Shown: positions 2,262-36,786 of the stretch, in pieces
Layout of the letters: every line of letters begins with the position of its first letter
Numbering within the stretch: position 1 is the first letter of the stretch
DNA from: an uncultured Mollicutes bacterium
GTDB taxonomy: Bacteria; Bacillota_I; Bacilli_A; RFN20; CAG-826
DNA: 64,000 nt
Direction of reading: 5' to 3'
Assembly: GCA_900539595.1 (NCBI GenBank)
Contig: UQCQ01000001.1
Span: forward strand, 172,291 to 236,290
Program-made: the position numbers and the translations under genes
The notes under the pieces: generated by a model
The model's database searches: none
What the model was told of the DNA's origin: nothing
The model's input: only the letters and a program-made list of their open reading frames with translations

Positions 2262-2297
2262 ATAAATCACCTCAACTTTGGATTTTCTGAAGTTCAA

Positions 2298-13490: not shown

Positions 13491-14708
13491 TCAGTTGAAA
13501 TCCAGATTCTCTTGTTCCAGTTTGACATCGTGCTCAAGCATGTAGCGGATGGTTTCGTGGAATTCCTTGGCTTCTTCCTTGTGGAGCATTAGGCCAAGGC
13601 GCTTCTTGTCATTTTCAGAAAGATGCATGCATTCGGTTGCGTATTTCTCCAGTTCAGGGATGCCCATCATAAGAGGATGAACGTCAATACCCGTCTTCCT
13701 TCTTAGGTCAAGGAGGATGTTGAATCCACCCCAATCGATGTCACCGATGTGGTAGAAAGGCAAGGAAGGATTGAAATCATGAATCTTTTTTAAGAGTTCC
13801 CTCTTGATGGAATTGTGGTAGCCGGCGAGATAGATCACGATGGCATCTTTGCCTAGGTAGTAATAGTAGGTTGTGAGGTTCTCGATGGTGATGACTTTCT
13901 TCTTGGATATCGAAAGGATTTTCATCTCGCCGATTTCTTTGTCCGTCATAGAGAAATCATCATTCAGGGCATCAAGGTCAATAATCTGGCTGTTGATGGA
14001 AAATGACATCCCATACCGGAGATAGGCGAACAAAGGGTTCTTGACGATGCCGTGTTCGGCATAGACATCGTCGATTTTTTCATATTCCTCCCCCGAGAAT
14101 TCCTGGAAAATGCGTAGAATCTTGGTTTCGTTGCGCTGAAGGAGTTTGGAGTCGGAGAAATTTCTGGCCGAAAAGTTCCGCAGCAAGATTTCTTCATGCT
14201 GATTTTCGATGGCGCGGACGATGCTGACCTGTGTCTTCAAGTCATCCAAGTCTTTGTAATGGCTGAGGTGGGATTTATGGGCCTCAACCAAGCCAAGAAG
14301 AAACAGCAGATAGGATTTCTCCGTTGGCCCTGCTTCAGTATCGGACAGGCGGGACTGGATGAATTCCTTTTCAGAAGAGACGACATTGCTTTTCCTTTTG
14401 TGTCCGGTTAGCCGATACGCCTCATTCAGTTTCTTTTCGCTTTGGTTAAGCTCGATATGGTGTAGAAGTTTTGTCTTCCGGTCCCAGTCGAGGAGAACCA
14501 GGCCATCCTTTTCCAGAGATTTGGCGGCCTGATCGATGTCATCCCGGTATTTGTAGGAATCCTCTGCCATATATTCCGGCAGAGCCTTGTCTTTCCAGAC
14601 ATCAATTCGGATTTTCGTTTGTTTTGAATCCTCGGCTTCAAAGCCTCTTTCCCCGCCTTGGTGTTTGTCCAAAAGCCGGTTTAGGATGATGTTTTCATAA
14701 TCCTTCAT
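13491..14708 (-). CDS. jetD: Wadjet JetD (Toprim/DUF2220-type nuclease subunit)
   Basis: C-terminal Toprim-like FYHIGDIDWGGFNI. It is ~405 aa and the last gene of a four-gene operon following an SMC-like ATPase; its start overlaps the jetC stop by 4 bp. Confidence 0.7.
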   Translation of the reverse strand: MKDYENIILNRLLDKHQGGERGFEAEDSKQTKIRIDVWKDKALPEYMAEDSYKYRDDIDQAAKSLEKDGLVLLDWDRKTKLLHHIELNQSEKKLNEAYRLTGHKRKSNVVSSEKEFIQSRLSDTEAGPTEKSYLLFLLGLVEAHKSHLSHYKDLDDLKTQVSIVRAIENQHEEILLRNFSARNFSDSKLLQRNETKILRIFQEFSGEEYEKIDDVYAEHGIVKNPLFAYLRYGMSFSINSQIIDLDALNDDFSMTDKEIGEMKILSISKKKVITIENLTTYYYYLGKDAIVIYLAGYHNSIKRELLKKIHDFNPSLPFYHIGDIDWGGFNILLDLRRKTGIDVHPLMMGIPELEKYATECMHLSENDKKRLGLMLHKEEAKEFHETIRYMLEHDVKLEQENLDFN

Positions 14709-17700
14709 GATTCCTTGAACCTCGGACGCGGGAAGATCCGGTCTTTGATTTTGACGAGCCCAATCGTTGTGTCGACGTAAGGGAATATCGGTTTTGCGTT
14801 CCTTGAAGGAACGGCGATGATGGGCTGGATGGATAGCTTGCGGAAGAACTGCATCATGGAATCGACGTGGGCCTCGTCCATCTTCTCAAAGGCCTCGTCG
14901 AACATGACGATGCACCCTTTGGATCGCTCGGAGTAGCCTGACTTTACGATTTGGTCGAATGAGGCGGCAATAATGACGTAAAAAGGCGTCTGGGTCTCGC
15001 CACCGCTCTTGGACTTGTTAATCTTGGAGAAACGATAACTCTTGCCGTATTTGTTCGTGATGATGATGTCGTAACTCATGAACTTCCGGTAATCGGTGAA
15101 ATCTTGTATGACTTTCATGGATTTCTCGTCCTTAGTATCTGCCGTAAGTCTCTTGAAGAGATCGTTCATGAGCTCCATGTTGCTGGTTGAGAGCTGCTCG
15201 GTGAAAAGATCCTTGATGGAATAATCTTCATTGCTTCGGAAGATTTCGTAGAATGGCGCAAACGTCGGATCCTTGGCTTTGGAAATCTCGAACTGATAAA
15301 TCTCCTCAGACGAGCCGAAGGGCTTGTCCTTGAGAATTTTGTTCAGATCTTTTATGTTCCTGATCTCATTGTTGATGTTGTTTCTAATCTCGGCGATGTA
15401 AGAGTTCTGGAAGGTTGTTTTCGCCTCTTCTTTGACTTTATTGAGACGATCTTCGTATTCGGCGAGATGACGCTTGACCACATTGTTGTATTCCTGGTAG
15501 AAGCCATCCAGACTGTCCATGTCGGCTCTGGCGTCGAAGGAAAACTTCGCGATGTATTCATTCATCAGGGCAATAATCGCTCTGAAATCGCTATCAATGG
15601 TTTGCGCATAATTGCCGATACGGGATTGCAATTGACCGTCGTTCAAAGGGTTTTCGGCGATAAAGGAATCCAAGTGTGCGCTTATTTGCGGGTCGCGCAT
15701 CATACCCAAAAATTCCCCATTGGCTTTTTCTAGGCCGGCAGAAGAGCTCTTCAGCTCCTCTTCTGCTTTTGTGGAAGAGGCTATGGATGCCTTTTCGCTT
15801 TTGTCGGCATCGGTCTGCTGTTTTTTCAGCCCGTCAATTTTGTCATTGATTGTATTGACCTGCGCCGTCAGTTTGCCGACGTTTTCCTTAAGACTATCGT
15901 ATTGTGTCTGAAGCCCGCTGACCTCCTTTTCCTTTTCTATCTTCTGCTGCCAGTAGTTCTCGATTTTAGAGAGTCGGCTATAGTCGTTTCCTTCGCCTAA
16001 TTTGATAAGCTGGCGGAGTTCGCCTGCCTTTGCTTCCAAAGGCGGCATCTTTTCCCCGACTTCCTTCAGTTCGTTTTCAACTTGTTCCAGCTGTATCTTG
16101 ATGGAATTGAGGCCGATATAAGGCGTCCTGTAGACTTCGGGCCTCGTCTGCCTTGCGGCCTTGTTTCGATAGACCATGACGGTCTTCGTGATGGAGCAAG
16201 GGTACTTTTTCAATTCATCCTCGGAATCCACGCAGATGACCTGACCAAGGATATAGCTGGCGTATTTCCCGGCATCCTCAGTCAAAGCGGTGACTTTCTC
16301 AGCAAGGGAGCCTTCGAGAGGCTTATCGTCTTTGAGCTTGGCGACGTCGACCAGTCCGACTCCGGAGATGTGTCTCTCAGTTTTGTATCTTTCATAAAGT
16401 CGAAGCGCCTCATCGAAGTATTCTTTCGGCACGAAAAGGTCAAAGCGTCTGGTGTTCAAATAACCTTCAATGGCGTTTCTCCACTCCTCGTTCTCCTGAG
16501 GAATCTCCAGCAGCTCACAGAACGGTTTAGGCTCAACGTCGACTCCGTATTTCCGCTTAAGGCCTGCTTGCATGACTTCTTTAAGCGACGTTATTTTTGG
16601 GTCATAATCCGGGATGCCCTTCTTCAGGCTATCCCTCCTAGCCATCAGCTTGCTCTGCTGATCTTTCAAGTCATTCAGCTCTCCCTTCAGATCTGATTCA
16701 ACTTGCCTGTTTTCGGAAAGGGCCGCGTCCAGTTTGGCCTTATAGGCTTCCAGTTCTCCTTTGAGCTCGGCAAAATCCTCTTCCGCAACGGCGTGGGAAA
16801 ACCTCGTCTGGATACGGAAGGCCGTGGCGATCTCCTTCTCCTTGAGAACGTCCTGGCTCAATTCGGTAGCCTTGTCGGCGAGCCTGCGGAGTTCCTTGCT
16901 GGCCCCATCGAGTTTGTCTTTGATTTCCTTGATTCGGATGTATGCCTCCTGGTGCTCGATGGCATATTTGCTTTCCTTCAACTCGTCGAGCTGGTCGGAA
17001 ATCTGTGCCTTTAGGGTGTTCAGAGCCTCTTGGCGCGCCTTTTCCTCGATGATTTTTCTTTGGCAGGAGGTGATAGAGCCGTTGAAGCGGTCGATCTGCC
17101 TCTTTTTCTGATAGGCGAAGCAAAGTTTCCGGTTCAGCAAGGCCTCTTTGTATTCATCACCGCGATGGATGATGTTCTCGAGGATCGTCTGTTTGGCCTT
17201 GTCGGTCTCAACAATGGCGAGAGTATCGTTATAGGTTCGGATGTTGGCGCGTATTTCCTCGATACTGACGTTCTTTTCCGGCATCAGGAAGCGGTAGACG
17301 AAACTGTCCACATCGTCGATCGGCTTGAAGGAGACGGCCTTGGGGAGGAGTTCGTAATACTTTCCGCCTTCAAGGGAGAGAATCGAATACAAAGCCCTTC
17401 GGATATCTTTTTTGGCGTCCCCGAGGTCATTCAGATCCTTGAATCTTTTCTTCATCGCCGCGAAATTCAGGTAAACCTTCTTTCCTTCAATTTCGGTCGA
17501 GAAAAGATCCTCGGTCATCTTGGTGTCTTTGAAATGGTAGAAGCCTCTTCCGGTCCTTGCCTTTCCCTCTTGGATTTCAAGGACGGCCCCGATGACAAAA
17601 TATTTTTTGGCTTCCTCATCAAAGAACTCCAGGGCGATGTGACTCACCACCGAAGGTTCTGTACGGAGGTCAGGATGGTCCACTTCTCCTGTGTGGCCTC

Positions 17701-17914
17701 GCATATAGGTCTCGATCGTTCTGTCGTTTTTGTCGTTGGCGGCTGCGTTGAAATAATCAGTGTCCCCACCTGTCAATAGGAAATACAAAGCATCGATGAG
17801 GGAGGATTTCCCCGAGCCGTTCTCTCCGGTTACGAGAATCGATCCCCTCACGTCGACGGTCTCGTCATAGAAGCCCTGCCAGTTGATGAGCTTAATCTTC
17901 GTCAGCGTCTTCAT
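14705..17914 (-). CDS. jetC: Wadjet JetC (SMC-like ATPase, MksB-like)
   Basis: N-terminal Walker A GENGSGKSSLIDALYFLLTGG. It has a long coiled-coil middle and a C-terminal Walker B/D-loop (IVMFDEAFEKMDEAH). 1069 aa. Confidence 0.8.
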   Translation of the reverse strand: MKTLTKIKLINWQGFYDETVDVRGSILVTGENGSGKSSLIDALYFLLTGGDTDYFNAAANDKNDRTIETYMRGHTGEVDHPDLRTEPSVVSHIALEFFDEEAKKYFVIGAVLEIQEGKARTGRGFYHFKDTKMTEDLFSTEIEGKKVYLNFAAMKKRFKDLNDLGDAKKDIRRALYSILSLEGGKYYELLPKAVSFKPIDDVDSFVYRFLMPEKNVSIEEIRANIRTYNDTLAIVETDKAKQTILENIIHRGDEYKEALLNRKLCFAYQKKRQIDRFNGSITSCQRKIIEEKARQEALNTLKAQISDQLDELKESKYAIEHQEAYIRIKEIKDKLDGASKELRRLADKATELSQDVLKEKEIATAFRIQTRFSHAVAEEDFAELKGELEAYKAKLDAALSENRQVESDLKGELNDLKDQQSKLMARRDSLKKGIPDYDPKITSLKEVMQAGLKRKYGVDVEPKPFCELLEIPQENEEWRNAIEGYLNTRRFDLFVPKEYFDEALRLYERYKTERHISGVGLVDVAKLKDDKPLEGSLAEKVTALTEDAGKYASYILGQVICVDSEDELKKYPCSITKTVMVYRNKAARQTRPEVYRTPYIGLNSIKIQLEQVENELKEVGEKMPPLEAKAGELRQLIKLGEGNDYSRLSKIENYWQQKIEKEKEVSGLQTQYDSLKENVGKLTAQVNTINDKIDGLKKQQTDADKSEKASIASSTKAEEELKSSSAGLEKANGEFLGMMRDPQISAHLDSFIAENPLNDGQLQSRIGNYAQTIDSDFRAIIALMNEYIAKFSFDARADMDSLDGFYQEYNNVVKRHLAEYEDRLNKVKEEAKTTFQNSYIAEIRNNINNEIRNIKDLNKILKDKPFGSSEEIYQFEISKAKDPTFAPFYEIFRSNEDYSIKDLFTEQLSTSNMELMNDLFKRLTADTKDEKSMKVIQDFTDYRKFMSYDIIITNKYGKSYRFSKINKSKSGGETQTPFYVIIAASFDQIVKSGYSERSKGCIVMFDEAFEKMDEAHVDSMMQFFRKLSIQPIIAVPSRNAKPIFPYVDTTIGLVKIKDRIFPRPRFKES

Positions 17915-18536
17915 CGCTATCCTCCTCTCCTCCGCTCTCGTGCTTCAGGGCGCTGATTCGCCCGATAATGTCCTCCAGCTTCTCTTGCGGAATCACGATC
18001 TGGATGGAAGGAAGAATGTGAATCTGGGTGTTCTCATCGATTCTCGTCGCCGAGAATTCGACGATGCTATGAGCACGGAACTTCCTTAGAGCGTCATTGT
18101 ATTTGGATACCTGTTTCGAATCGGGAACTACCTGAGCGGTGTCCATCTGGGTGATGAGCTCATCCACGGAGACGAAGATCTCGTCGCTCGAGGTGATCTC
18201 CCGCTTCTTCTGGTTGTAGACTTTCCTCAGGATCAGCAGCAAGGCCGTGTCGAACTTGGTGAGCCTCATCCGGTCCCGATTGGCAAGCGTCTTGACGTAG
18301 ATAACACCGATTTCCTTTTGGGCGATGAGGTCGTAGTCAAGCAAGGAAAACAGGGAGGAGAAGCACTCTAGGTTTTCGATGACGACGAAATAGTCCTGGT
18401 AGTCGTCCTTCTTCTCCCGAATCAGGAAGTTGTTCCCGAGGAGCTTGGCTGAGATTCGGGAGAAAGTTTTACTATCCGTCTCCCCCAGAGCCATGTATTT
18501 GGTATAAAACGTCTCGCAGTCCTGCTGCTTACTCAT
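17892..18536 (-). CDS. jetB: Wadjet JetB (MksE-like, DUF4194-type)
   Basis: 214-aa acidic protein between jetA and jetC with overlapping start/stop codons. Assigned by its position and size within the jetABCD operon. Confidence 0.55.
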   Translation of the reverse strand: MSKQQDCETFYTKYMALGETDSKTFSRISAKLLGNNFLIREKKDDYQDYFVVIENLECFSSLFSLLDYDLIAQKEIGVIYVKTLANRDRMRLTKFDTALLLILRKVYNQKKREITSSDEIFVSVDELITQMDTAQVVPDSKQVSKYNDALRKFRAHSIVEFSATRIDENTQIHILPSIQIVIPQEKLEDIIGRISALKHESGGEEDSDEDADED

Positions 18537-19939
18537 CTTTTTTCCTCCTTCCTGCAGATCTCGAATTCCTTCTCTCGGAAGCCGTTCTGCGCGTAATAGT
18601 CATTCCTGAATGTCACCGTATAGCACATGTCGTCGTATTCAGAATAAAGTTCCAGCATCAGCATGAGGAACTGTTTCTCCTTCGTATCCTGATCGATATC
18701 CTTAGAGGAGACTTTGTTTCTATCTCCCAGCACCTCGGAGGCAAACTCGTTGACCTTTTCCTTAGAGAAGGCATCCTCATCGAATAAATGAGCTTCTTCT
18801 TTCTGGATTTCCTCATCAGAGACATTGGGTATCTCACTTGGAGAATAGGTGATTTTCTCTTTATCGAAGCTTCTGGAGTATGTGGACCGGTCATCGATCT
18901 GGATCGTCGAATAAATCCCCACCACATCCTCGAAACTCTCTTTCGGATCTGCTTTGGCAAGAGCCTTCAAGGCAGAATTCAGAAGCCCATTGACATCCCT
19001 TCTAGTATTGATGAGGAACTTCAGTCTTGCCAAGGCTGAATTATGGAATTTCATGTTCCGGCGATCGATGAGCGAGACGAAGTCGTTCACAGACTCGAAT
19101 TTGGCGATGCAGTCGTCCAGCCCGTCGGCGACGGATTTCTCTAGTTCTTTGTACTTCTCGCCGGTCAGGCCACTGGTGTGGGTGGCAAAGCTATCGACGA
19201 TGCGCTCGAAATCCTCTCTGTTGTAACGAAATGCTCTTAGCTTCACCAGGATCTCCGACGTATACTTTGAAGGATTGTCTTTCCCCTTCAGGCTGTTGAA
19301 GGCAGTCAGGACGACCTGGTCTTGGTATTTGTATAGCAAGGTATCCAAGACTTCCTCTGGGGTGATATCCGGCCGGTTGATCATCTCCTCAATGAAACGC
19401 CGGATGGTCGAACTCAGCCCTTGAAGGCTGTTGAACAGATCGACAGTGTTCTTTTCTATTTGCTCAAGGCGGGCTTTCGCCTCATTGAACTCAAACGTCT
19501 GAAGAAGAGAATAGACCGTGTAGAAATAACCGGTGTACTCCAAGGGACGATCCTGCTGCGAAACGATTTCATGGAAAACCTGAAGTAGTTTCAAGGCGTT
19601 GTCGTTCAAGGAGTAGGCGACCGTGAACTGATGAGTCTCGTCCGGGTCCTCTTCGAGCCAGCCGGCCTTCTTGAACTGCTTGATTTTGAGAACAGCTTTG
19701 TCTTTAGCGCTTTTGGTTGCGATGTCTTCCCCTTCCTCGTCTTCTAAGCTGCCGAAATCCCGTGACTGGATATAGGCCGTTAAGTCATCAATCAAGTCAT
19801 CCCTAGAAATGGTCTGCCGTCTCTCGCCTTTGGTGAAAAGGTCGTAAATCACCGAAAGAAGGTCGTAATTGGCATTGCGATCTTCTCGGGAGAATACGGT
19901 GAAGATTCTTGGGTTCAGGATTTCAAACAGCTGATTCAT
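18533..19939 (-). CDS. jetA: Wadjet JetA (MksF-like, DUF3375-type)
   Basis: 468-aa first gene of the operon, with a 4-bp overlap onto jetB. Assigned by operon position and size; no catalytic motif is expected. Confidence 0.55.
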   Translation of the reverse strand: MNQLFEILNPRIFTVFSREDRNANYDLLSVIYDLFTKGERRQTISRDDLIDDLTAYIQSRDFGSLEDEEGEDIATKSAKDKAVLKIKQFKKAGWLEEDPDETHQFTVAYSLNDNALKLLQVFHEIVSQQDRPLEYTGYFYTVYSLLQTFEFNEAKARLEQIEKNTVDLFNSLQGLSSTIRRFIEEMINRPDITPEEVLDTLLYKYQDQVVLTAFNSLKGKDNPSKYTSEILVKLRAFRYNREDFERIVDSFATHTSGLTGEKYKELEKSVADGLDDCIAKFESVNDFVSLIDRRNMKFHNSALARLKFLINTRRDVNGLLNSALKALAKADPKESFEDVVGIYSTIQIDDRSTYSRSFDKEKITYSPSEIPNVSDEEIQKEEAHLFDEDAFSKEKVNEFASEVLGDRNKVSSKDIDQDTKEKQFLMLMLELYSEYDDMCYTVTFRNDYYAQNGFREKEFEICRKEEKR

Positions 19940-19978
19940 AGTGATGTGTACCCATCTAATTAGACTACGTTGAAAACA

Positions 19979-20233
19979 TCATATCACAAGCTCAGACGCT
20001 AGATGTCTCCTGAACAGTTCAGAAGACACCTTTAGTCTGAGTTTGATGCGCTTCGTGTTATACCATTGAACATCCTCGTCTTCTCCTCGCATAAGCCTTT
20101 TTGGCTCATGCTTCGGATGTCCTTCTCTCCGCCGCCATTTGGTCCGCAAGGACTTGGTGGCACTCATGCGGACAGACATGGGAGTTTTTGACCTCGAGAT
20201 GTCCGCAGTTTCTCTTGTCCGCGCCACCATCAA
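19979..20233 (-). mobile_element. IS3-family (IS150-group) transposase C-terminal fragment; a scar with no intact transposase
   Basis: The ORF ends ...VQWYNTKRIKLRLKVSSELFRRHLASEL, resembling the conserved IS3 OrfB tail ..YYNNKRIKAKLKGLSPVQYRTQAL. The surrounding 19.94-20.55 kb is GC-richer and contains only broken ORFs. Confidence 0.45.
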
Positions 20234-20615
20234 TTTCCCCTGGTTCTATCAGGGGTTTTCGGTTACCCGAATTCCTCACGCGTTAGATCCTAAGTCCTAC
20301 ATAGTCCTTTCTTTCCTTTGGAAGAGCAAAGCGTATCCGATAGGAATAGGACGGAAAATAGCGTATTTGTTTCCAGCCCAAGGTACGAAAAAGAATGCCA
20401 ATCAATAGCGTATATTGGCTTTTGTGGACGAGCTGCAGACGGAAGCGGACGGCCATGGCAAGCGTATTTTTGAGACCTGCCAGATGATGGCGTTTCATCA
20501 GTCGGAACCGCCTTCGTTCCTGTAAGCATTATAACAAAACAAAATGCGAATACAATAGGGAAAACAAAGATTTCATCGAACTTTTTTCGATGCCAGGATA
20601 GGATTCTATCGTGTT

Positions 20616-20933
20616 CTATTTAAGGCGTGCGGACGCATCGGAATTATTGTTTTCACTTGCGGAACTTTGTTCGTTCGCGTTGTTTATGGCTGTGCAAATT
20701 TTCTCTATTAGTCCCTTGAATCTATCAAAAATGATTTTGTCATTTTCCGTTAAATGTTCTTTGCCGATTACATTGATTTCAACTTGCTCATTGATTGGTA
20801 CTGATTTAAAGATAAAATCATATAAATCTTTACCAGTAACCGAGTGATCCTTTGAAATGGAAAACAATTTGCTTTCTTCTTCCATGACTACTAATTCTTC
20901 ATCAATACGTTTAATCTGTAATTGTTTTTTCAT
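20616..20933 (-). CDS. Hypothetical 105-aa protein translationally coupled to the upstream PHP-ATPase gene
   Basis: Its start overlaps the stop of the 815-aa gene by 23 bp. It has the same very low GC content and no recognisable motifs. Confidence 0.5.
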   Translation of the reverse strand: MKKQLQIKRIDEELVVMEEESKLFSISKDHSVTGKDLYDFIFKSVPINEQVEINVIGKEHLTENDKIIFDRFKGLIEKICTAINNANEQSSASENNNSDASARLK

Positions 20934-29296: not shown

Positions 29297-29298
29297 CC

Positions 29299-30006
29299 AT
29301 GTTCATATTACCGAGTAAAGCGTATGTTCATCGCGAATACCCGCTTAAGGATGTCTATAAGGCGATTGGGGCAGACAAGAAGCTGATAGAGGCTTCCAAG
29401 AACATCAAGAAGATCTACATCGAATACGTCTTCAACCAGAAGAACACTAACCTTCAGGTGAAGTCGGTCAAGGAAATCCATTTCTATAAGATAGAGCTGA
29501 CAGACTTCCACGTGCCGGAGGACTTCATCCTGGCACTGGACAAGAAGGATAAGTTCCAGGTGGTGTTCATTATCACGTGTGAGGACTTGGAGAAGGATAT
29601 GACCGCTCCCAAGAGAATCAATGGGGAGGAGGTTACAAAAGCCAAATACATCCAGTCCGAATGGATGAAGATAGGGGATGATGTCAAGATACCTCCTGCC
29701 GATACTTTGGATGAACTATACTGCTTCCTCTATGGAGCCTTCAACGAATATAAGCCCTTCAAAGGTGAACTGCTTGAGAATTATATTAAAAGATGTAATG
29801 AACTGAGGAAACTCGATTATCAGATCAGTAAGACCACGATGGCAATCCAGAATGAAAGACAGTCGAAGAAGAGAATCGAATACAATCACAATCTGAACGA
29901 ATACAAAGAAAGAAAATCCTATCTATTAAACCAAAGGAGAATGGAAAATGCAGAAATTATCAGCGCAATCGAAGGATTTGTCTCAGGAGAACATAAAGAA
30001 GGTTGA
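29299..30006 (+). CDS. Hypothetical 235-aa protein between the SNF2 helicase and the methyltransferase (possibly DUF4391-type)
   Basis: Its start lies 3 bp after the SNF2 stop, and its end overlaps the mod start by 59 bp. The family assignment is inferred from the recurring helicase / DUF4391 / MTase / Res synteny, not from motifs. Confidence 0.45.
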   Translation: MFILPSKAYVHREYPLKDVYKAIGADKKLIEASKNIKKIYIEYVFNQKNTNLQVKSVKEIHFYKIELTDFHVPEDFILALDKKDKFQVVFIITCEDLEKDMTAPKRINGEEVTKAKYIQSEWMKIGDDVKIPPADTLDELYCFLYGAFNEYKPFKGELLENYIKRCNELRKLDYQISKTTMAIQNERQSKKRIEYNHNLNEYKERKSYLLNQRRMENAEIISAIEGFVSGEHKEG

Positions 30007-31849
30007 GGAATTATTCCCCAACTGCGTGACCGAAACCTATGACCAGGACGGCAACCTCGTCAGAAGCATCGACTTCGACATCCTCCGCCAGGACCTCTCC
30101 GACCATGTCGTGGAAGGCCCGAAGGAGAGATACCAGTTCAACTGGCCTGGAAAGAGAGATGCCATCCTTTTAGCAAACGCACCGACCACGAACACATTGA
30201 GACCTTTGCCAGAGAAGTCCGTCAATTTCGAGAATACGAAGAACGTCTATATCGAAGGAGATAACCTCGAGGCTCTGAAAATCCTCAGAGAGACCTACAT
30301 GGGCAAGATCAAGATGATCTACATCGACCCACCGTACAATACAGGTAATGATTTCGTCTATAAAGATGACTTCAAACAGTCTACTGAAGAATATTTGAAA
30401 TCATCCGGCGACATCGACGAGGAAGGCAACCGCATGGAAGTCAACGGAGAATCCAACGGAAGATTCCATTCAGACTGGCTCAATATGATGTATCCAAGAC
30501 TCGTTCTCGCAAGAGACTTGCTCACGGATGATGGATTGATCTTCATGAGCATCGATGACAATGAGCAGGACAATTTAGTTCGTCTAGGAAAAGAAATATT
30601 TGGCGAATCGAATTTTGTGGCGACTTTTCCTTGGAGAAAACGCACTGCGAAATCTGATGTGCCTTTTGGTGTTTCGCAGGATTTTGAATGGGTTCTCTGC
30701 TTTGCTAAATCGAGTCAAACAAGAGTTAGTATTGAAGGAAAAGAAAGAAAATACTTTGAAACGGATGATTTTCCAGGGCGTCCCTGGCGAATTCATGATT
30801 TGACTAAGCAAACCACAGCGTCTGAACGACCTAACAGTTACTTCACTATTGTGGATAAAAAAAGAAATATATCTTACCCTGCAAACCCAAATAGAACATG
30901 GTGTGTCTCTAAAGACACTTTTTCCCAATATGATGCTGAAAATCGAATCGTCTATCCTGGAGACTATCCTTTTTTGAAAATATCGCAGCCTGTTCTAAGA
31001 TATTGGAAAGAAGACGATCAGAAAAAAGATGGCGAATTATTCGGACGTGTTGCATTAAGCACATTATTTCCACAAAGTGTAGGAATGTCCCAAGATGGAA
31101 GTAAAGATGTTTTTAAATTATTCAATTCCAAAATATTCAGCTTTCCAAAGCCGGTCTCATTGATAAAGTATTTAATATCTGCTGCTACGCAAGAAGACGA
31201 TTTAATCGCAGATTTCTTTTCCGGATCCGCCACCACCGCAGAAGCCGTTTTCAAGCAAAACCTTGAAGATAATGGAAACAGAAAATTTCTTTTGATACAG
31301 ATGCCGGAACACACCGGTGATACTGAAGCCTTTAAAAATGGTTTTTCAGATATTTGCAGCCTTGCTGAGGAAAGAATACGTCGTGCAGGAAAAGTTATCA
31401 AAGAGGAAAATCTTCTTACTATAGAGGGATTTGATTTTGGATTTCGTGTATTTAAGACCGATTCTTCCAATATGAAGGATGTTTTGAGTACTCCAAAAGA
31501 AACTCAGCTGAGTCTTCTTGAAAATGCTGAGTCTGCTATTAAACCTGACCGAAGTCCTCTTGATCTTGTCACTCAAGTTATGCTTCAGCTGGGCATGACT
31601 CTCGATGCTGATATAAAAATTGGAAAGTTTGCGGGCGGAGGGCAATTCTATGCCGTTAACGGCAATGATCTCGTCTGCTGCTTTGATAAGAACATTTCCG
31701 AATCTAACATTGAGGAACTGGCTCGGATACAGCCTTTAAACGTTGCATTCAAAGATGATTCCTTTGCTTCTGATCAGGATGAAGTCAACTGTGAGCAGAT
31801 ATTTAAGACTCTTTCTCCGATTACCGGTAAAAATATCTTTGTTCTTTGA
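29948..31849 (+). CDS. mod: Type III restriction-modification Mod subunit (beta-class N6-adenine DNA methyltransferase)
   Basis: Motif IV MIYIDPPYNTGNDF precedes motif I DFFSGSATT (beta order). 633 aa, with a 4-bp overlap onto res. Confidence 0.8.
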   Translation: MQKLSAQSKDLSQENIKKVEELFPNCVTETYDQDGNLVRSIDFDILRQDLSDHVVEGPKERYQFNWPGKRDAILLANAPTTNTLRPLPEKSVNFENTKNVYIEGDNLEALKILRETYMGKIKMIYIDPPYNTGNDFVYKDDFKQSTEEYLKSSGDIDEEGNRMEVNGESNGRFHSDWLNMMYPRLVLARDLLTDDGLIFMSIDDNEQDNLVRLGKEIFGESNFVATFPWRKRTAKSDVPFGVSQDFEWVLCFAKSSQTRVSIEGKERKYFETDDFPGRPWRIHDLTKQTTASERPNSYFTIVDKKRNISYPANPNRTWCVSKDTFSQYDAENRIVYPGDYPFLKISQPVLRYWKEDDQKKDGELFGRVALSTLFPQSVGMSQDGSKDVFKLFNSKIFSFPKPVSLIKYLISAATQEDDLIADFFSGSATTAEAVFKQNLEDNGNRKFLLIQMPEHTGDTEAFKNGFSDICSLAEERIRRAGKVIKEENLLTIEGFDFGFRVFKTDSSNMKDVLSTPKETQLSLLENAESAIKPDRSPLDLVTQVMLQLGMTLDADIKIGKFAGGGQFYAVNGNDLVCCFDKNISESNIEELARIQPLNVAFKDDSFASDQDEVNCEQIFKTLSPITGKNIFVL

Positions 31850-34800
31850 GGAATTTAATTATGAAATTCATATTTAAAGAACAGGATTACCAGATATCGG
31901 CTGTGAAAGCTGTCACGGATGTTTTTGCTGGACAACGTTATCAGTCGCTTTCTCAATACACACGTGACTTGGGAAAACTTTCACCGAAAGAAGCTGGCAA
32001 GAATCAGCAATTAAGACTTGACTTAGGGCTTAATAACAAAAGCGACCTTTTGGTGGCCAAAGGCAACGATAATGATGATTTAGCCATAGGTTTTGCTAAT
32101 GCGCCAATTCAGATTGATGATCAACAGGCCTTGAAAAATATTCAAACCATTCAGATGAAATCCAATTTATCGGTGGATGAGCATCTTTCCAAAGTTCTTA
32201 GCCCTTTGGACTTAGATGTGGAGATGGAGACCGGAACGGGTAAAACCTATGTCTATATCCGCACAATGTTTGAGTTGAATAAACTTTACGGCTTTTCTAA
32301 ATTCATCGTCATGGTTCCATCCATTGCTATTCGTGAAGGTGTCAAGAAGTCATTCGAACAGACTCAGGAACACTTCATGTCCATCTACGGGAAGAAAGCC
32401 CGTTTCTTTATTTATAGCAGTGCAAACCTGGCTGAAATCGATAACTTCGCCAAAGATAGTTCCATCGAAGTGATGATCATCAACATCCAGGCTTTCAATA
32501 CGCACGGCAAGGACGGACGAAAGATTTATGAGGAACTCGATGAATTCCAGTCCAGAAGACCGATCGACGTCATCAAGAAGACTAGACCGATTCTGATTCT
32601 TGATGAGCCACAGAAGATGAGTGGAGACGCTACCAAATCTTCCATAGGTGAATTCAATCCACTTTTCACCATTAACTACTCGGCTACGCACAAAGAAAAA
32701 CACAATCTTGTATATGTTCTTGATGCCTTGGACGCCTATAACGCGAAGCTTGTTAAGAAAATCCAGGTAAAAGCAGTCAAGGTCGATAATGTCAAAGGAA
32801 CCCAGGCTTTCTTATATTTGGAGGATATCATCCTTCGAGGTGATAAAGATCCTCAGGCGAAAATCAGCTTCTTCCGCAACACCAAGCAAGGAATCAAATC
32901 CTATACACAGCTGCTTAGTCGCCAAGACAACATCTATGAACTATCCGGTTTTGATGCCACAAGCCAATTATCGGTCTATAAGAACAACTATATCGTCGAT
33001 GAAATCGATTATGTATCAAATACCGTCAGATTGCTGAACGGCATTGTTTTGCATGCCGGAGAAGTGATTGGGGATAACTCGGAAGATTTGATAAGAAGAA
33101 TACAAATCCGTGAGACTATCGCTTCCCATTTGGAAAAGGAGCAGGATAATTTCCATAAAGGAATAAAGACCCTTTCTCTTTTCTTCATCGACGAAGTCAA
33201 AAAATATAGAGACTATTCTCAGCCCGATGAAAAAGGCGAATATGCCAAGATTTTCGAGGAAGAATACAACTGGGCGGTTACTGAATTTTGCAATAACCTC
33301 ATCAACACAGATGAGGAATATAAGAAGTATCTTCAGCTATTTACTCCTGATCAGGTCCATAACGGCTATTTTTCCATCGATAAGAAAGGACATGCAATCG
33401 ATTCCAAAGCGGATCGCAAGACAGGTTTATCCGATGATCAATCCGCCTATGATTTGATTTTGAAGAACAAGGAACGTCTTCTTTCCTTCGATGAGCCCAC
33501 TCGTTTCATATTCTCCCATTCTGCCTTACGGGAGGGATGGGACAACCCGAATGTCTTCCAAATCTGCTTCTTAAGACATACCAAGAGCGAAACTCAGAAA
33601 CGGCAGGAAGTGGGTCGTGGTCTTCGTATCGCCGTAGATAAGAACGGAAACCGTCAAGACGCCACTGTTTTAAGTGATTTCTTCGGCGTGAATAAGCTTA
33701 CTGTCATTGCTAATGAGGATTACGAGTCATTCGTAAAAGGATTGCAGTCTGAAATCAAGGAAGTCCTCTATAAGCATCCGACCAAGGCGGACAAGGACTT
33801 CTTCTTTGGCAAGCCGATCACGAACGCAGAAACCAATGCTGAAACCAACATTACGGATGCTCAGGCTAGAAGCATTTACCAGTATTTGGTGAAAAACGAT
33901 TATGTGGATGCTTCTGACAATCTTACAGAGAAATTCCGTGACGATGTGGATAAGTCCATATTAGTTGACATGCCGGAAGATTTGAAACCTTATCAGGCAT
34001 CCATCATCGAACTTGCAAACAGCATCCGCAAAGGCGGAAATATTGAAATCGAAAACGGCAAGAAACCTAAGGTTCTCGAAAACAAAGTCAATCAGAATTT
34101 CGATAGAAAGGAATTCAAAGAGCTTTGGAACGCCATCAACCATAAGTACTCCTATCGCGTTTCCTTCAGCTCTGACGAATTAGTTAAGAATTGCATCGAA
34201 AGAATCAAGAAAGAATTGGAAGTTTCTAAAATAACCTATTCGGTCGATGTCGGTGAGCAGAAAGAAACTATTGATCAGAAAGATATTGATAATTCCTTCC
34301 AAAGAGGTGCCGATAGTGGAAAGAAAGAAAAACTCCATGTTGCTGCTCCTTCTTCTGCAAAATACGATCTTGTTCACGAAATAGCTCAGCGCACGCATCT
34401 TACTCGAAGAACGATTGTCCGTATTCTCGTCGGGACAAAAGAAAAGCTTCAGATGTTCCGTAATAACCCGGAAGAATACATCACAAAGATTAGTAATCTG
34501 ATTGATGATGAAAAGGCCTCTGTGATTGTTCGTGGCATCCGCTATGACAAATTGACTGACAAATTTGACGATACCATTTTCAACGAAAAGCACGCCGATT
34601 TTGATAGTCAGAAGGCTTTCAAATCCAAAAAGGCAATCCAGGATTATGTCTTTGTCGACGGTACCGCCAAAAACGGCGAATCCAATGAGATGAAGTTTGT
34701 CAAAAATCTTGAACAGCAAGAAAACGTCAAGGTATACGCAAAAATGCCTAAAGGTTTTTATATTCCTACTCCGATGGGAAGATATTCTCCTGACTGGGCC

Positions 34801-35028
34801 ATCGTCTATGAATCCAATGGCGAAAAAGGCATTTATTTCATTGCTGAAACGAAAGGAAACTTGAGTTCCTTATCTTTGCGAAAGGTTGAGGAATCCAAGA
34901 TTGAATGCGCGAAGAGCCTTTATAACCAGCCCAAATCCAAGGTCAATTATGGCTTAGTACATACCTATGATGATCTTGTCACGAAGGTGATGGACATTTT
35001 GGAAAAACACAACGGAGAGCAATCATGA
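31846..35028 (+). CDS. res: Type III restriction enzyme Res subunit (SF2 helicase plus C-terminal PD-(D/E)xK nuclease)
   Basis: Walker A VEMETGTGKTYV and DEPQ box ILILDEPQKM. C-terminal YSPDWAIVYE...IAETKG nuclease motif. 1060 aa. Confidence 0.8.
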   Translation: MRNLIMKFIFKEQDYQISAVKAVTDVFAGQRYQSLSQYTRDLGKLSPKEAGKNQQLRLDLGLNNKSDLLVAKGNDNDDLAIGFANAPIQIDDQQALKNIQTIQMKSNLSVDEHLSKVLSPLDLDVEMETGTGKTYVYIRTMFELNKLYGFSKFIVMVPSIAIREGVKKSFEQTQEHFMSIYGKKARFFIYSSANLAEIDNFAKDSSIEVMIINIQAFNTHGKDGRKIYEELDEFQSRRPIDVIKKTRPILILDEPQKMSGDATKSSIGEFNPLFTINYSATHKEKHNLVYVLDALDAYNAKLVKKIQVKAVKVDNVKGTQAFLYLEDIILRGDKDPQAKISFFRNTKQGIKSYTQLLSRQDNIYELSGFDATSQLSVYKNNYIVDEIDYVSNTVRLLNGIVLHAGEVIGDNSEDLIRRIQIRETIASHLEKEQDNFHKGIKTLSLFFIDEVKKYRDYSQPDEKGEYAKIFEEEYNWAVTEFCNNLINTDEEYKKYLQLFTPDQVHNGYFSIDKKGHAIDSKADRKTGLSDDQSAYDLILKNKERLLSFDEPTRFIFSHSALREGWDNPNVFQICFLRHTKSETQKRQEVGRGLRIAVDKNGNRQDATVLSDFFGVNKLTVIANEDYESFVKGLQSEIKEVLYKHPTKADKDFFFGKPITNAETNAETNITDAQARSIYQYLVKNDYVDASDNLTEKFRDDVDKSILVDMPEDLKPYQASIIELANSIRKGGNIEIENGKKPKVLENKVNQNFDRKEFKELWNAINHKYSYRVSFSSDELVKNCIERIKKELEVSKITYSVDVGEQKETIDQKDIDNSFQRGADSGKKEKLHVAAPSSAKYDLVHEIAQRTHLTRRTIVRILVGTKEKLQMFRNNPEEYITKISNLIDDEKASVIVRGIRYDKLTDKFDDTIFNEKHADFDSQKAFKSKKAIQDYVFVDGTAKNGESNEMKFVKNLEQQENVKVYAKMPKGFYIPTPMGRYSPDWAIVYESNGEKGIYFIAETKGNLSSLSLRKVEESKIECAKSLYNQPKSKVNYGLVHTYDDLVTKVMDILEKHNGEQS

Positions 35029-35219
35029 ACTATGCCGAGAAACTAAAAAAAATCCGTGAAACTTTACTATTATCTCAGGATGAATTGGCCAAAGAACTTA
35101 GTGTTACTTTTGCAACCGTGAATCGTTGGGAAAACGGACATCATGAGCCATCGCTAAAAGGAAAGAAGGCCATCAGAGATTACTGCAAGAAAATGCACAT
35201 TAAATTGGAAAAGGATTAA
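35025..35219 (+). CDS. XRE-family helix-turn-helix protein (64 aa)
   Basis: LSQDELAKELSVTFATVNRWENGHHEPS is a canonical Cro/CI-type HTH. Its start overlaps the res stop by 4 bp. Confidence 0.6.
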   Translation: MNYAEKLKKIRETLLLSQDELAKELSVTFATVNRWENGHHEPSLKGKKAIRDYCKKMHIKLEKD

Positions 35220-36159
35220 GATTGCTGATTTTATCGTTCTTCAAAAAATCTAAAACAAAATCTCTCCAATTTTGGTACCAATACCATTGTTTACCGACAA
35301 AGACACCATAGTGCTTTTCTGGATTTCTTGCATCATATTTTTTCCATAGCTTTGTGTGTTGATCTAGATTGAAAGTCGGAAAACCATTCTCTTTAACGAA
35401 ATTGACTATGGCACTAGGCAAAAACTTTGGCCTTTCTGTTTCTTTTATCAATAAATTTATTGCGTTGCTTTCCTCACTTCCTGACTTGACAAACCTTATT
35501 GCCTGGTCGGCTTGGTTTGGCTTGTTAACGTTTACAGGTACGAAACATACTCTATAAGAATATTTAGAATTTTCTAATATTTCGCTTGAGAGTGATTTTT
35601 CATAGGAAGAGATAATACTTGTGATGTTGTCAGCTGTCTTTTTGTTGATTAAGCCATTTTTTTGTTCTGGATTCAATGATGAAAATTGTATTGCCATACA
35701 CATAGTTTTATCTAATCCGAATTTGACGCCGAACAATTGCTTGATATAGTAATTGAAGTTGATGCTGCAAGCTTGGATTTTGGCACTTATTAATGAATCG
35801 TTTGTTTCGTAATAGCTATGCTCGATTTTGTTTCTAATTTGGATAAGAAGTTCTAAATTTTTCGCAGTAGGTTCATCTATTGGCGATTTGGTTTCTTTGA
35901 TGCTTCGCGATAAATCCCACTCTCTTTTCCGACCATCTATATATTCGTATTTGTATTTCCCATTGTCTTGAGACTTTCTATAGTAATAGCAAATATGATT
36001 TTTGTAGTAATACGCATGGAATAAATAAGTCCAGGCAATTTCTGAATTTACAATAAATAGTTCGCTTTTAAATGTGATTGTTGGATTGTTGTAGATTGCA
36101 ACTGCTGACATCATTGCTTGTCTAGCTTTTTCGACCAATGTTTTCCATTTGGCTTTCAT
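35200..36159 (-). CDS. HEPN-like protein (RNxxxH motif; Abi/DUF4145-like), 319 aa
   Basis: LELLIQIRNKIEHSYY carries an Rx4H HEPN-type motif. It is convergent with, and overlaps by 20 bp, the HTH gene at the 3' end of the R-M operon. AT-rich. Confidence 0.45.
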   Translation of the reverse strand: MKAKWKTLVEKARQAMMSAVAIYNNPTITFKSELFIVNSEIAWTYLFHAYYYKNHICYYYRKSQDNGKYKYEYIDGRKREWDLSRSIKETKSPIDEPTAKNLELLIQIRNKIEHSYYETNDSLISAKIQACSINFNYYIKQLFGVKFGLDKTMCMAIQFSSLNPEQKNGLINKKTADNITSIISSYEKSLSSEILENSKYSYRVCFVPVNVNKPNQADQAIRFVKSGSEESNAINLLIKETERPKFLPSAIVNFVKENGFPTFNLDQHTKLWKKYDARNPEKHYGVFVGKQWYWYQNWRDFVLDFLKNDKISNLNPFPI

Positions 36160-36319
36160 TTCTATACTCCTTTATTTAATGATTCGTAAAAAGATTTTTA
36201 AAAGAATATTTTGCGAATATTCACGCCTATCTTTTAACACGATAAATGCGCAAATAATTTGTAAACGTCACGTATATATTAAAACAGACCTCGATGAGAA
36301 AGGCAGTTCTGAAAAAGTC

Positions 36320-36490
36320 GGCTCGATGTTCTCCACATCGTCGAAGGGAGCGGATGCAACATGCCTCATCCTGATGATCGCTCAGACCGTACGTCTGAAC
36401 GAGCTGTGCCTGGACGGGTACGTCCGGCATCTTCTCGAGAACCAGAATGAGCTGAGCGACGGAAGGACGATGCAGAAGTATATCCCATGA
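36320..36490 (+). mobile_element. IS66-family transposase C-terminal fragment (scar)
   Basis: ...GSMFSTSSKGADATCLILMIAQTVRLNELCLDGYVRHLLEN matches the conserved IS66 tail ..NWLFS.S..GA.ASA..YSLIETAK.NGL.P..YL..LLE. Only ~57 aa are retained. GC-rich. Confidence 0.5.
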
Positions 36491-36701
36491 TCCAAGTCCA
36501 TTTCGGGCAGTGTGAAGTTCACAAAAGCGGAAATGGAGCAGGCGAAGGAAGCTGTGGTGAAGAACACGAAGAAGGGACAAAAAATAGTGGCCGGTTCCCA
36601 CGATTGCGGAAGCCGGCCTTTCTTACGGCTTTTTACAAGGGGAATTGACGCTTATCAAAAAATCTTCGGACCCATTGAATCCGAAGACTGTTTTTACTGT
36701 G

Positions 36702-36786
36702 TGGTGCGGGCAACAGGACTTGAACCTGCACGGAGTTACCCATTAGATCCTAAGTCTAACGCGTCTGCCAATTTCGCCATGCCCGC
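36702..36786 (-). tRNA. tRNA-Leu (anticodon TAG)
   Basis: The reverse complement folds as a class II tRNA: acceptor GCGGGCA/TGCCCGC, anticodon stem TTAGA/TCTAA with loop CTTAGGA, a long variable arm, T-arm GCAGG-TTCAAGT-CCTGT, and CCA encoded. Confidence 0.8.

Follow-up and report, generated by a model that had tools for sequence, protein, structure and literature searches.

A strain-specific defence island at tRNA-Leu(TAG) in an uncultured gut Bacilli lineage and its probable origin by successive integration

Anti-plasmid and anti-phage defence genes of contrasting base composition are crowded beside a single tRNA-Leu(TAG) gene in the 64,000-nucleotide stretch of DNA analysed here (the window), and the question is how they came together. 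A preliminary description of the window had seen a composite island put together by several independent acquisitions. We conclude that the genes make up a strain-specific defence island, carried by an uncultured gut Bacilli lineage, and that this island was probably formed by two successive site-specific integrations at tRNA-Leu(TAG) followed by decay, giving the present island at 12131–36701. Two elements would have inserted one after the other at the anticodon-loop region of the tRNA gene and then decayed: element A (20297–36701), bringing an extended type III restriction-modification (R-M) cassette, a HEPN (DUF3644) protein, a GIY-YIG/DUF2075 protein and a PHP-ATPase pair, and element B (12131–20239), bringing a type I Wadjet operon.

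Extent, setting and composition of the island

The right-hand border was examined in six related genomes and contigs with a RarA 98–99% identical to that of the window. Identity runs up to the last base of tRNA-Leu(TAG) (36702–36786, minus strand; ARAGORN, Rfam 58.5 bits), at position 36702, and is followed by four different downstream sequences. The 3' end of the gene faces the island, and the tRNA gene is both the integration target and the right-hand island boundary. On the left, homology returns at 12130 in three relatives (L004, L007 and L011), within a truncated fic gene (HTH-Fic) of which a 3' remnant is left at 12008–12130 (minus strand), as aligned with the intact fic of the same three relatives; this junction sits in a 12-nt microhomology, ACCGGTTCCCCC. 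Since homology ends at 36702 and resumes at 12130, the variable interval is 12131–36701, replacing the earlier extent of 13491–36786 and moving the left edge to 12130/12131. It measures 24.6 kb; in L007 it is 1.6 kb long and in both L004 and L011 4.7 kb, with flanks 94–98% identical (98.4% in L011) and other DNA filling the interval. To the left of 13.5 kb there are further variable, defence-type genes, including a viperin-like sugar-enzyme cassette.

The assembly is supported by an independent contig, L034, covering 19179–30120 at 100% identity. The sequences compared all come from metagenomes, as contigs or MAGs, and may include chimeras; L010 looks rearranged. The genome of a distant relative is about 1 Mb in size.

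Composition is mosaic, as had been described, with module GC ranging from 33 to 51% compared with 47% in the core at 44–64 kb. The Wadjet genes lie at 46–51% (GC3 0.60–0.73), the PHP-ATPase gene and its small partner at 33–35% (GC3 0.32–0.33), Mod and Res at 41% and the DUF3644 gene at 33%. The spread of GC3 between modules (0.32 to 0.73), together with a Wadjet block that is 98–99% identical elsewhere and a restriction cassette that is only 67–88% identical to its relatives, supports separate module histories.

The Wadjet block and the traces of tRNA-Leu

Wadjet is an SMC-like anti-plasmid system that senses and cuts small circular DNA. The operon occupies 13491–19939 on the minus strand (Pfam JetA, DUF4194, SMC-type ATPase and JetD_C/Toprim; PADLOC) and consists of jetA (18533–19939; PADLOC JetA1), jetB (17892–18536; JetB1), jetC (14705–17914; JetC1) and jetD (13491–14708; JetD1), all on that strand. 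PADLOC type I profiles cover the four proteins end to end (E 1e-39 to 5e-247), the genes overlap and follow the order jetA-B-C-D, and nothing unusual was seen in the operon. Elsewhere the 7.5-kb block recurs, 98–99% identical, in three or more contexts, one of them a lineage whose neighbouring relB is just 77% identical. It stands alone beside tRNA-Leu in L024–L026, L028 and L032, the gene being tRNA-Leu(TAG) in the other lineage represented by L024, and has other neighbours in L027–L031.

The distal end of element B (12119–13490) comprises a conserved arm about 140 bp long (12119–12260) and a doubtful ORF (12063–13034, plus strand), whose translation looks partly non-coding and for which a family search gave no match. 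Two copies in L021, both beside tRNA-Leu sequences, match the arm at 82% identity, and the arm of L029 and L030 matches it at 94%. In the sibling contigs L029 and L030 the Wadjet block (98.8%) and the arm are followed by a 62-nt copy of the tRNA-Leu 3' end (96.8%) and then by the native flank found beyond the intact tRNA of empty strains. The 62-nt copy serves as attR, an end that appears to have been lost from the present strain.

Between the two elements, at 20240–20296 (minus strand), blastn-short and alignment recovered a degenerate 3' half of a tRNA-Leu-like sequence. It includes an exact 14-mer of the tRNA-Leu anticodon stem-loop, TTAGATCCTAAGTC (blastn-short E=0.015), and the alignment takes in the half-tRNA of L015 (81.7% over 59–60 nt) and the pseudo-tRNA of L024. 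Both ARAGORN and Rfam missed this sequence, which is degenerate outside the 14-mer, and we read it as the relic of an internal att site separating element A from element B. A repeat of the tRNA 3' end had been suggested as a search target; no copy passed a mismatch search of the window. Next to the half-tRNA lies element A's distal arm (20297–20615, some 320 bp), within a match (20286–20638) that is 89.5–89.7% identical to L015–17, where the same arm also follows a partial tRNA-Leu, beside RNase III.

Transposase tails had been named as the scars that mark the junctions. An IS3-like C-terminal remnant is present at 19979–20233 (minus strand; rve_2 E=0.004, below the cut-off), with its best weak tblastn matches (E 0.1–5) in annotated IS3 transposases, and it was confirmed in L027, L034 and L035. 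It lies inside the Wadjet block common to all contexts but L029/L030 and is thus cargo rather than a junction. An IS66-like C-terminal fragment (36349–36490, plus strand; GC 56%) gave no match in Pfam or NCBIfam, and its weak tblastn matches (E 0.1–5) are mostly in annotated IS66 transposases; cassette homology with L015/L016 ends at 36348, just before it. As IS3 and IS66 remnants the two tails are weakly supported, and two junctions bear tRNA-Leu att relics as well, so that the tails are not their sole markers.

The restriction cassette and its neighbours

All the modules named earlier (Wadjet, PHP-ATPase, GIY-YIG-DUF2075, SNF2, the 235-aa protein, mod/res, XRE and HEPN) lie where they had been placed and passed HMM searches. 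Instead of seven or more modules they form four to five units, as SNF2-DUF4391-Mod-Res-XRE recurs elsewhere as one cassette, usually with DUF3644. The defence functions given here are all assigned by homology.

In type III R-M systems Mod is the subunit that methylates host sites, and invaders lacking this methylation are cut by Res. The cassette, on the plus strand, contains an SNF2-family helicase (26015–29296; Pfam SNF2-rel_dom and Helicase_C, PADLOC C3a139 9e-120), a 235-aa DUF4391 protein (29299–30006; PF14335 5e-22), the methyltransferase Mod (29948–31849; PADLOC MTase_III 4e-208, N6_N4_Mtase), the helicase and endonuclease Res (31846–35028; PADLOC REase_III 6e-292, Pfam ResIII and RE_endonuc; 1055 aa as called, with a likely ATG start at 31861) and, as fifth gene, an XRE/HTH_3 regulator (35025–35219; HTH_3 3.8e-11), the ATG of which overlaps the Res stop codon (ATGA). 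Upstream is a 50-aa DUF4177-like small ORF (25591–25743, plus strand; E=0.008, below the cut-off), and homologous small ORFs precede SNF2 in L016, L017, L021 and L022. The order SNF2-DUF4391-Mod is kept in every locus recovered, Res comes next wherever the contig reaches, and XRE is kept downstream of Res in L015–18 and L021/22. The cassette is itself mosaic, the two halves of L015 being 73% and 88% identical, and the central part of Mod (about 30.6–31.2 kb), which is without DNA similarity in any cassette homologue, would be the target-recognition region. In other lineages too (L018, L021) the SNF2 cassette adjoins tRNA-Leu(TAG).

Adjacent Mod (N6_N4) and Res (SF2 helicase plus endonuclease) in the usual order resemble EcoP15I-like type III systems; unlike these, SNF2 and DUF4391 always precede Mod, XRE is coupled to the Res stop codon, and a HEPN (DUF3644) or CTD6-MC2 module is attached. 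The SNF2 helicase (Walker A GLGKT, motif II DESH, an uncharacterised N-terminal region of 250 aa) has SNF2/RapA proteins as its PDB matches and lacks an HKD motif (HxKx4D). With its link to an N6-adenine methyltransferase in a multigene operon and partial matches to the DrmD profile (1e-34), it recalls DISARM class 1 (DrmD SNF2 plus adenine methylase); here, however, a complete type III Res is present, and a profile search did not detect DrmA or DrmB (DUF1998). DUF4391 is a family of 363 representative clusters for which a literature search found no study, and a fold search with its AF2 model (pLDDT 74) gave no significant match.

Convergent to XRE lies the DUF3644 HEPN-family protein (35200–36159, minus strand; PF12358 6.8e-48; PADLOC candidate PDC-S19 1.3e-103), which carries an RNKIEH (Rx4H) motif and is predicted to be an RNase back-up effector. 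It adjoins the cassette XRE in L003, L015–17 and L018, while L021 and L022 have a different module in its place. DUF3644 overlaps EC042_2821, a HEPN family reported from R-M operons (PMC3710099), and an Rx4H HEPN protein beside a restriction operon follows the pattern of R-M-linked HEPN nucleases (PrrC/RloC paradigm; EC042_2821/DUF3644; PMC3710099), although the present protein, unlike PrrC/RloC, is not fused to an ABC ATPase.

The gene at 23520–25286 (minus strand) encodes a fusion of a GIY-YIG nuclease with a helicase of the DUF2075 type, Schlafen group 3 (SLFN-g3_helicase 7.7e-61, GIY-YIG E=0.005, N-terminal PDC-S14 match 8e-12; motifs VVY...AYVG and GGAGTGKS). Homologues 71–75% identical occur near the cassette in L013 and L018, and the protein is a candidate single-gene defence. 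The 815-aa protein at 20911–23358 (minus strand) joins, like Ppl and TrlF, an N-terminal PHP phosphoesterase (HIH, DHD) and an ABC/SMC-type ATPase (ABC-type Walker A and B) in one polypeptide. The TrlF profile matches its N-terminus (NCBIfam 5e-50; 171 bits, cut-off 350) and the Ppl profile its C-terminus (NCBIfam 2e-19, 69 bits, cut-off 1000; PADLOC 4e-19), yet both scores fall far under the cut-offs, the profiles are longer (about 880–940 aa), and a 105-aa partner ORF (orf105; 20616–20933, minus strand) overlaps the end of the gene by 23 nt. The partner has no family match in Pfam, PADLOC or NCBIfam profile searches, and the pairing was found only in identical or near-identical contigs.

Formation of the island

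What the genes are, where the junctions lie, the att relics and the differences between strains are shown by the data; the order of events in the favoured reading is inferred. Both elements would since have lost their integrases, with the small IS3- and IS66-like fragments staying behind, and a deletion, possibly across the 12-nt microhomology, would apparently have removed the distal attR together with about 0.7 kb of flank and the greater part of fic. Neither an integrase nor an intact att repeat was found in the window, and no intact element carrying its cargo together with an integrase was obtained; a tyrosine integrase lies about 2 kb past a tRNA-Leu copy in L010, and C-terminal integrase fragments occur in L008, L027 and L031. 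Islands at tRNA genes that grow by tandem accretion of integrase-mobilised elements share the position on the 3' side, strain-variable content, mosaic composition, defence-dominated cargo, an internal att relic and, in the sibling contigs, a partial tRNA copy as attR; the present copy differs in lacking an integrase and an intact att pair, in the apparent removal of one end by deletion into fic, and in its host, an uncultured gut Bacilli lineage.

A history in which the content was swapped through homologous recombination at the conserved flanks (tRNA-Leu/rarA; fic/relB), without site-specific integration in this lineage and with the tRNA-like pieces as hitch-hiking relics from donors, would fit the shared tRNA-end breakpoint in all strains, the 100% identity of the tRNA in occupied and empty strains, the window's lack of an integrase and the recombination evident within the cassette (the two halves of L015). 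We nevertheless consider it unlikely, as in L029 and L030 the partial tRNA copy is followed by two different native flanks (of L008 and L004 type), a signature of integration into distinct backgrounds, and integrase genes or fragments are present at the site in L010, L008 and L027. The two processes are not mutually exclusive, and homologous replacement could be the source of the reconstituted tRNA's identity to that of empty strains. Somewhat less probable still is assembly by IS3 and IS66 elements that inserted, recombined and decayed, leaving scars at module junctions: besides the two fragments in the island, L036 has an intact rve-type IS after orf105 (from window position 20561) and L018 an HTH_Tnp_1 fragment between cassette and tRNA-Leu, but the scars come from two separate IS families, are about 50 aa in length and stay under HMM thresholds, the IS3 tail belongs to the shared Wadjet block, tRNA-derived sequences and conserved arms sit right at the internal junction and the left one, and neither inverted repeats nor target duplications turned up.

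That the whole 24.6 kb is the remnant of one ICE, IME or prophage is very improbable. It is one contiguous block beside a tRNA gene and keeps the same arrangement in four contigs, but GC3 differs widely between modules, an internal half-tRNA is present, the Wadjet block occurs alone or with other neighbours, at this site L003 carries DUF3644, XRE and Res genes that are 83% identical, and the Pfam-type family matches in the island include no conjugation, replication or phage genes. The earlier observation is confirmed in part, and its reading as several independent acquisitions is supported by the differing interval of the relatives, the separate Wadjet contexts, the diverged mosaic cassette and the internal half-tRNA.

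For the host, homology with characterised systems suggests that the modules would act independently and in layers, with the HEPN RNase, the nuclease-helicase and the PHP-ATPase serving as further or back-up effectors; these biochemical activities are likewise inferred. The near identity of the Wadjet block in several gut metagenome contexts points to its recent spread. The island is of an ordinary type, and one restriction cassette within it is poorly studied.

The tRNA-Leu(TAG) site and the assembly of the island

The gene for tRNA-Leu(TAG) (36702-36786) has its 3' end towards the island, and six related genomes and contigs are identical to the window through the last base of this gene and then split into four different downstream sequences. 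Homology to relatives picks up at position 12130. This point falls in the final 120 nt of a gene for an HTH-Fic protein, of which three relatives (L004, L007 and L011) have an intact copy, and the variable interval is therefore 12131-36701 (24,571 bp). The equivalent interval is 1.6 kb in L007, consisting of 0.7 kb between tRNA and fic plus fic itself, and 4.7 kb in L004 and L011, where it encodes a 718-aa protein, an MscS-like channel and Fic; the flanks of L011 are 98.4% identical to those of the window. As in tRNA-integrated islands, the insertion lies at the 3' part of a tRNA gene and relatives have an empty site. The other, smaller content (1.6-4.7 kb) of this interval in relatives answers the comparison suggested in the preliminary description and supports a strain-variable hotspot. 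At the same site, the comparison sequence L003 carries DUF3644, XRE and Res genes at 83% identity.

The window is matched at 99.995-100% identity by a 237-kb gut-metagenome contig from ENA, and its RarA shares 98-99% identity with the RarA of three uncultured Bacilli MAGs and 65% with the RarA of a relative whose chromosome is 1.06 Mb long. GC is 47% in the core of the window (44-64 kb). Per-gene GC is 46-51% for the Wadjet genes, 33-35% for the PHP-ATPase pair, 45% for the SNF2 gene, 41% for mod and res and 33% for the DUF3644 gene, and this range of 33-51% between modules bears out the mosaic base composition described earlier.

A direct repeat of the tRNA 3' part, which had been suggested as a check near 13 kb or the window start, was not found at the distal end: with up to 3 mismatches, the tRNA gene itself was the sole match to its 3' end in the window, and general repeat, tandem-repeat and Rfam scans gave nothing that bounds the island. 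The missing end is seen in two sibling contigs, L029 and L030, in which the Wadjet block extends to the equivalent of position 12119 and a 62-nt copy of the tRNA-Leu 3' part (96.8% identical) starts 15 nt beyond it, and next comes the flank found immediately after the intact tRNA in empty strains (L008-like in L029 and L004-like in L030). This arrangement is a classical attR. In the window, the same 140-bp arm (12119-12260) is instead fused directly to the fic remnant, with the junction falling in a 12-nt sequence, ACCGGTTCCCCC, common to the arm end and fic, and the distal end has no tRNA repeat because, we infer, attR was lost at this junction. The arm also holds short direct repeats (AGGAACC and GCGGAC, two copies each), which may be integrase arm-binding sites, and it has two copies in the unrelated contig L021 (3299-3390 and 5824-5935), both of them just upstream of a tRNA-Leu, full or partial. 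Two ORFs in this region (12063-13034 and 13112-13498) are doubtful as genes; their translations are partly non-coding in appearance.

A second trace of the tRNA lies inside the island. Positions 20240-20296 are a degenerate 3' half of a tRNA-Leu-like sequence, including an exact 14-mer, TTAGATCCTAAGTC, of the tRNA-Leu anticodon stem-loop, and adjoin an arm of approximately 320 bp (20297-20615). In L015-L017 this arm is approximately 90% identical and likewise follows a partial tRNA-Leu, beside an RNase III gene. Given the internal half-tRNA and the shared arm, we read the island as two tandem elements, A (20297-36701) and B (12131-20239). These would have integrated serially at one tRNA-Leu and lost their integrases, and an att site would have been lost along with part of the neighbouring toxin gene.

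No integrase gene was found in the window: tblastn with the integrase of contig L010 gave no match there, and the Pfam scans gave no integrase domain. Elsewhere, integrase C-terminal fragments occur in three comparison sequences (L008, L027 and L031), and L010 encodes a tyrosine integrase approximately 2 kb past a tRNA-Leu copy. Two strains, represented by L010 (7757-11523) and L009 (11730-11771), have flanks that are 98% identical and a break in homology inside the tRNA-Leu, at window position 36745. After this break, a second tRNA-Leu (88% identical) follows approximately 300 bp on, then an HNH gene and the 443-aa tyrosine integrase and, further along, L13 and S9 genes that are only 81% identical. 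Either an integrated element or an assembly chimera could account for this structure and, since the tRNA break, the second tRNA-Leu and the divergent L13/S9 genes leave room for rearrangement or chimerism, L010 is drawn on solely for its integrase. The same hotspot recurs in other lineages: in one of them (L024-L026, L028 and L032; relB 77% identical) the Wadjet block stands directly after tRNA-Leu(TAG) and before relB-doc, and in L018 and L021 tRNA-Leu(TAG) adjoins the SNF2 cassette. In L027, an HNH/integrase-type element beside the Wadjet block contains the Rfam Staphylococcus-1 RNA motif (612-742; 105 bits, above the gathering score).

The junctions had originally been described as marked by scars of insertion sequences, namely an IS3-family and an IS66 transposase tail. 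The family assignments are plausible, since the best of the weak tblastn matches of both tails fall consistently within transposases annotated as IS3 and IS66. In Pfam the IS3-like tail stays below threshold (rve_2, E=0.004; 17.6 bits, cut-off 22), NCBIfam and a permissive Pfam search gave no HMM match for the IS66-like tail, and neither tail has a tblastn match in plasmids at E<=1e-3. These scars are not the sole markers of the junctions. The IS3-like tail lies inside the Wadjet block common to all contexts except L029/L030, and both the internal junction next to it and the left junction of the island carry tRNA-derived sequence; cassette homology to L015/L016 stops at 36348, the start of the IS66-like piece. 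A resemblance of the IS66-like tail to a 167-aa ORF of L015 was rejected, being DNA homology upstream of DUF3644 read in another frame. The end of the IS3-like tail (19982-20044) is palindromic in DNA, as its translation matches its own reverse strand, and may be a terminator or an IS end. Additionally, a pig-gut contig (L036, 493-1605) is identical to window 20561-20978, around the 105-aa ORF beside the PHP-ATPase gene, and runs on from there into an rve/rve_3 transposase that is intact. In other strains, IS elements thus actively target the region downstream of this ORF.

Defence modules of the island

All modules named in the preliminary description were found again and are supported by profile searches, although they amount to four or five units instead of seven or more, the XRE gene being part of the restriction cassette. 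Element B carries a complete Wadjet type I operon, jetABCD (13491-19939, minus strand), of overlapping or abutting genes. In Pfam these are JetA (DUF5716/PF18982), JetB (DUF4194), JetC (an SMC-like ATPase with Walker A and B motifs) and JetD (Toprim/JetD_C), and all four match PADLOC profiles over their full length (JetA1 1e-69, JetB1 4e-39, JetC1 5e-247 and JetD1 1.5e-91). Wadjet type I systems restrict small circular DNA via loop extrusion and cleavage by JetD, and by analogy the operon in the window would do the same. The JetB protein is identical in many contigs and the block as a whole (approximately 12794-20296) recurs at 98-99% identity in three or more further contexts, a near-identical Wadjet block thus being in circulation among gut bacteria.

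Element A includes an 815-aa PHP-ATPase (20911-23358), the end of whose gene is overlapped by the 105-aa ORF. The protein has no Pfam match above threshold; its N-terminal half matches PHP weakly and carries the PHP motifs HIH and DHD, and its C-terminal half matches AAA_21 weakly, with ABC-type Walker A (GDNSKGKS) and Walker B (IYIIDQPEDD) motifs. An N-terminal PHP domain followed by an ABC-type ATPase is the architecture of Ppl and TrlF, but as a whole protein it falls far below the cut-offs of both TrlF (NF045780; 5e-50, 171 bits against 350) and Ppl (NF042955; 2e-19, 69 bits against 1000). A DUF2075/Schlafen-group-3 helicase (7.7e-61) of 588 aa matches GIY-YIG weakly at its N-terminus, and homologues 71-75% identical to it are found near the cassette in L013 and L018. 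By analogy, both this helicase and the PHP-ATPase pair are candidates for nuclease-NTPase effectors that act on their own.

The restriction cassette encodes, on the plus strand, an SNF2 helicase, a DUF4391 protein, a type III Mod and a type III Res. Mod and Res match PADLOC MTase_III (4e-208) and REase_III (6e-292) and Pfam N6_N4_Mtase, ResIII and RE_endonuc, and have the type III order, with Mod followed by a Res that combines an SF2 helicase and a C-terminal endonuclease. Type III systems hemimethylate an asymmetric site, and their ATP-dependent cleavage requires two inversely oriented sites; Mod and Res would, by analogy, restrict unmethylated DNA. A 64-aa HTH_3 (XRE) gene comes after res, with its ATG overlapping the res stop codon. 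We looked at DUF4391 homologues (43-95% identical) in six distinct genomic contexts, in all of which SNF2 (approximately 1090 aa), DUF4391 and Mod occur in this order, with Res next wherever the contig reaches. XRE follows Res in four of the six. The gene after XRE is DUF3644 in L015-L017 and L018, likewise in L003, and a CTD6-MC2 module in L021 and L022, while a small DUF4177-like ORF often stands upstream of SNF2. From this recurrent order, XRE belongs to the cassette and DUF3644 is often added to it.

The middle of mod (approximately 30577-31211), probably the target-recognition region, resembles none of six cassette homologues at the DNA level, and both of its flanks align. This suggests that the target-recognition domain has been exchanged, and therefore that specificities differ. 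Between L015 and the window, cassette identity is 73% in the half with SNF2 and 88% in the half with Res, in agreement with a step in third-codon-position GC in the window.

The DUF3644 gene is convergent to the cassette (PF12358, 6.8e-48; PADLOC candidate PDC-S19). DUF3644 overlaps the HEPN family EC042_2821, which has been described in restriction-modification operons and assigned to HEPN (PMC3710099), and the translation matches the DUF3644 profile and contains an Rx4-6H motif, RNKIEH; the initial label "HEPN-like" was therefore correct. The protein may serve as an RNase back-up, by analogy with HEPN nucleases linked to restriction-modification systems, such as PrrC.

DUF4391 is a small family (363 representative clusters) on which a literature search returned almost nothing; its structure model, an N-terminal alpha/beta domain with three long C-terminal helices, gave no significant fold match. 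Searches of plasmids and viral contigs with DUF4391, the PHP-ATPase and a viperin-like protein encoded left of the island returned no matches. The SNF2 protein received the PADLOC label "HKD+Snf2", which we rejected for want of an HxKx4D motif and a PLD match in Pfam. Its likeness to DISARM is confined to partial DrmD and DrmA profile matches. The DISARM core, a DrmA helicase and DrmB (DUF1998) with either DrmC (PLD) or DrmD, was not found in the island, where no ORF has a DUF1998 or PLD domain, and because DrmA/DrmB and the HKD motif are absent the cassette is not DISARM.

We tentatively consider it possible, if somewhat improbable, that SNF2-DUF4391-Mod-Res-XRE, with its effector slot and its spread at tRNA-Leu(TAG), represents a distinct and uncharacterised helicase-augmented class of type III system. 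The SNF2/DUF4391 pair would then be an obligatory partner, and its role might be the loading or licensing of Res, or the detection of anti-restriction. The slot after XRE would take exchangeable back-up effectors, the HEPN protein DUF3644 here and CTD6-MC2 elsewhere, and small integrase-mobilised elements targeting the anticodon loop of tRNA-Leu(TAG) would have spread the cassette among gut Firmicutes.

Accessory content beyond the island

Variable, defence-type content goes on to the left of the island, where homology to L004 is interrupted a second time, 2 nt below the stop codon of relB. The relB antitoxin gene (11558-11812) is without its doc toxin partner, and a 7.5-kb viperin-like cassette (4072-11512, minus strand) starts where the homology stops, in place of doc; L004 has doc and an ATPase there and no viperin-like cassette, and L011 has a DUF4238 gene at the corresponding position beside relB. 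The differing content below relB therefore marks a second variable spot adjoining the island.

The cassette encodes a HAD_2-like protein (189 aa), a viperin-like radical SAM enzyme (302 aa), a WbmS-like protein and a UDP-sugar dehydrogenase, and a 1294-aa fusion of a HAD phosphatase, two GT1 glycosyltransferases and a UDP-GlcNAc 2-epimerase. The viperin-like enzyme matches PADLOC pVip (3e-32) and scores 104.7 bits against NCBIfam viperin_w_prok, below the cut-off of 180 for a prokaryotic viperin; all nine of its PDB sequence matches are viperins, viperin-like enzymes or radical SAM proteins without a name, and the name MoaA is attached to none of them. The gene order recurs, as separate genes, in mouse-gut and other contigs (L041-L044), once beside a phage-type integrase and a type I HsdR, and a full-text literature search found no paper on it. 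Its product could be a modified nucleotide or nucleotide sugar, or else a surface glycan that varies between strains.

A number of DUF4143 AAA ATPases, paralogues of one another (PADLOC candidate PDC-S01), and an ATPase_2/DUF234 protein (PDC-S27) are encoded on either side of the tRNA-Leu (1023-3994 and 40516-41871). Two more lie beyond the window start, in sequence that is still accessory-like (L006, 19028-21290). A 22-bp tandem repeat of three copies (2272-2338) spans the predicted 5' end and upstream region of one of these ATPase genes.

Significance for defence in this gut lineage

The first reading of the region as a composite defence island holds, and the comparisons give a more precise account of how it was assembled. 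The island is real, well delimited and of a familiar kind; novelty is confined to the uncharacterised partners in the cassette and the candidate effectors, and current concepts of defence islands are unchanged by these results. The island offers a base-level picture of how such a region was built up and then decayed in a gut lineage known solely from metagenomes. Further, it singles out testable unknowns, namely the SNF2 and DUF4391 partners of the type III enzyme, the PHP-ATPase pair and the adjoining cassette of viperin-like and sugar enzymes.
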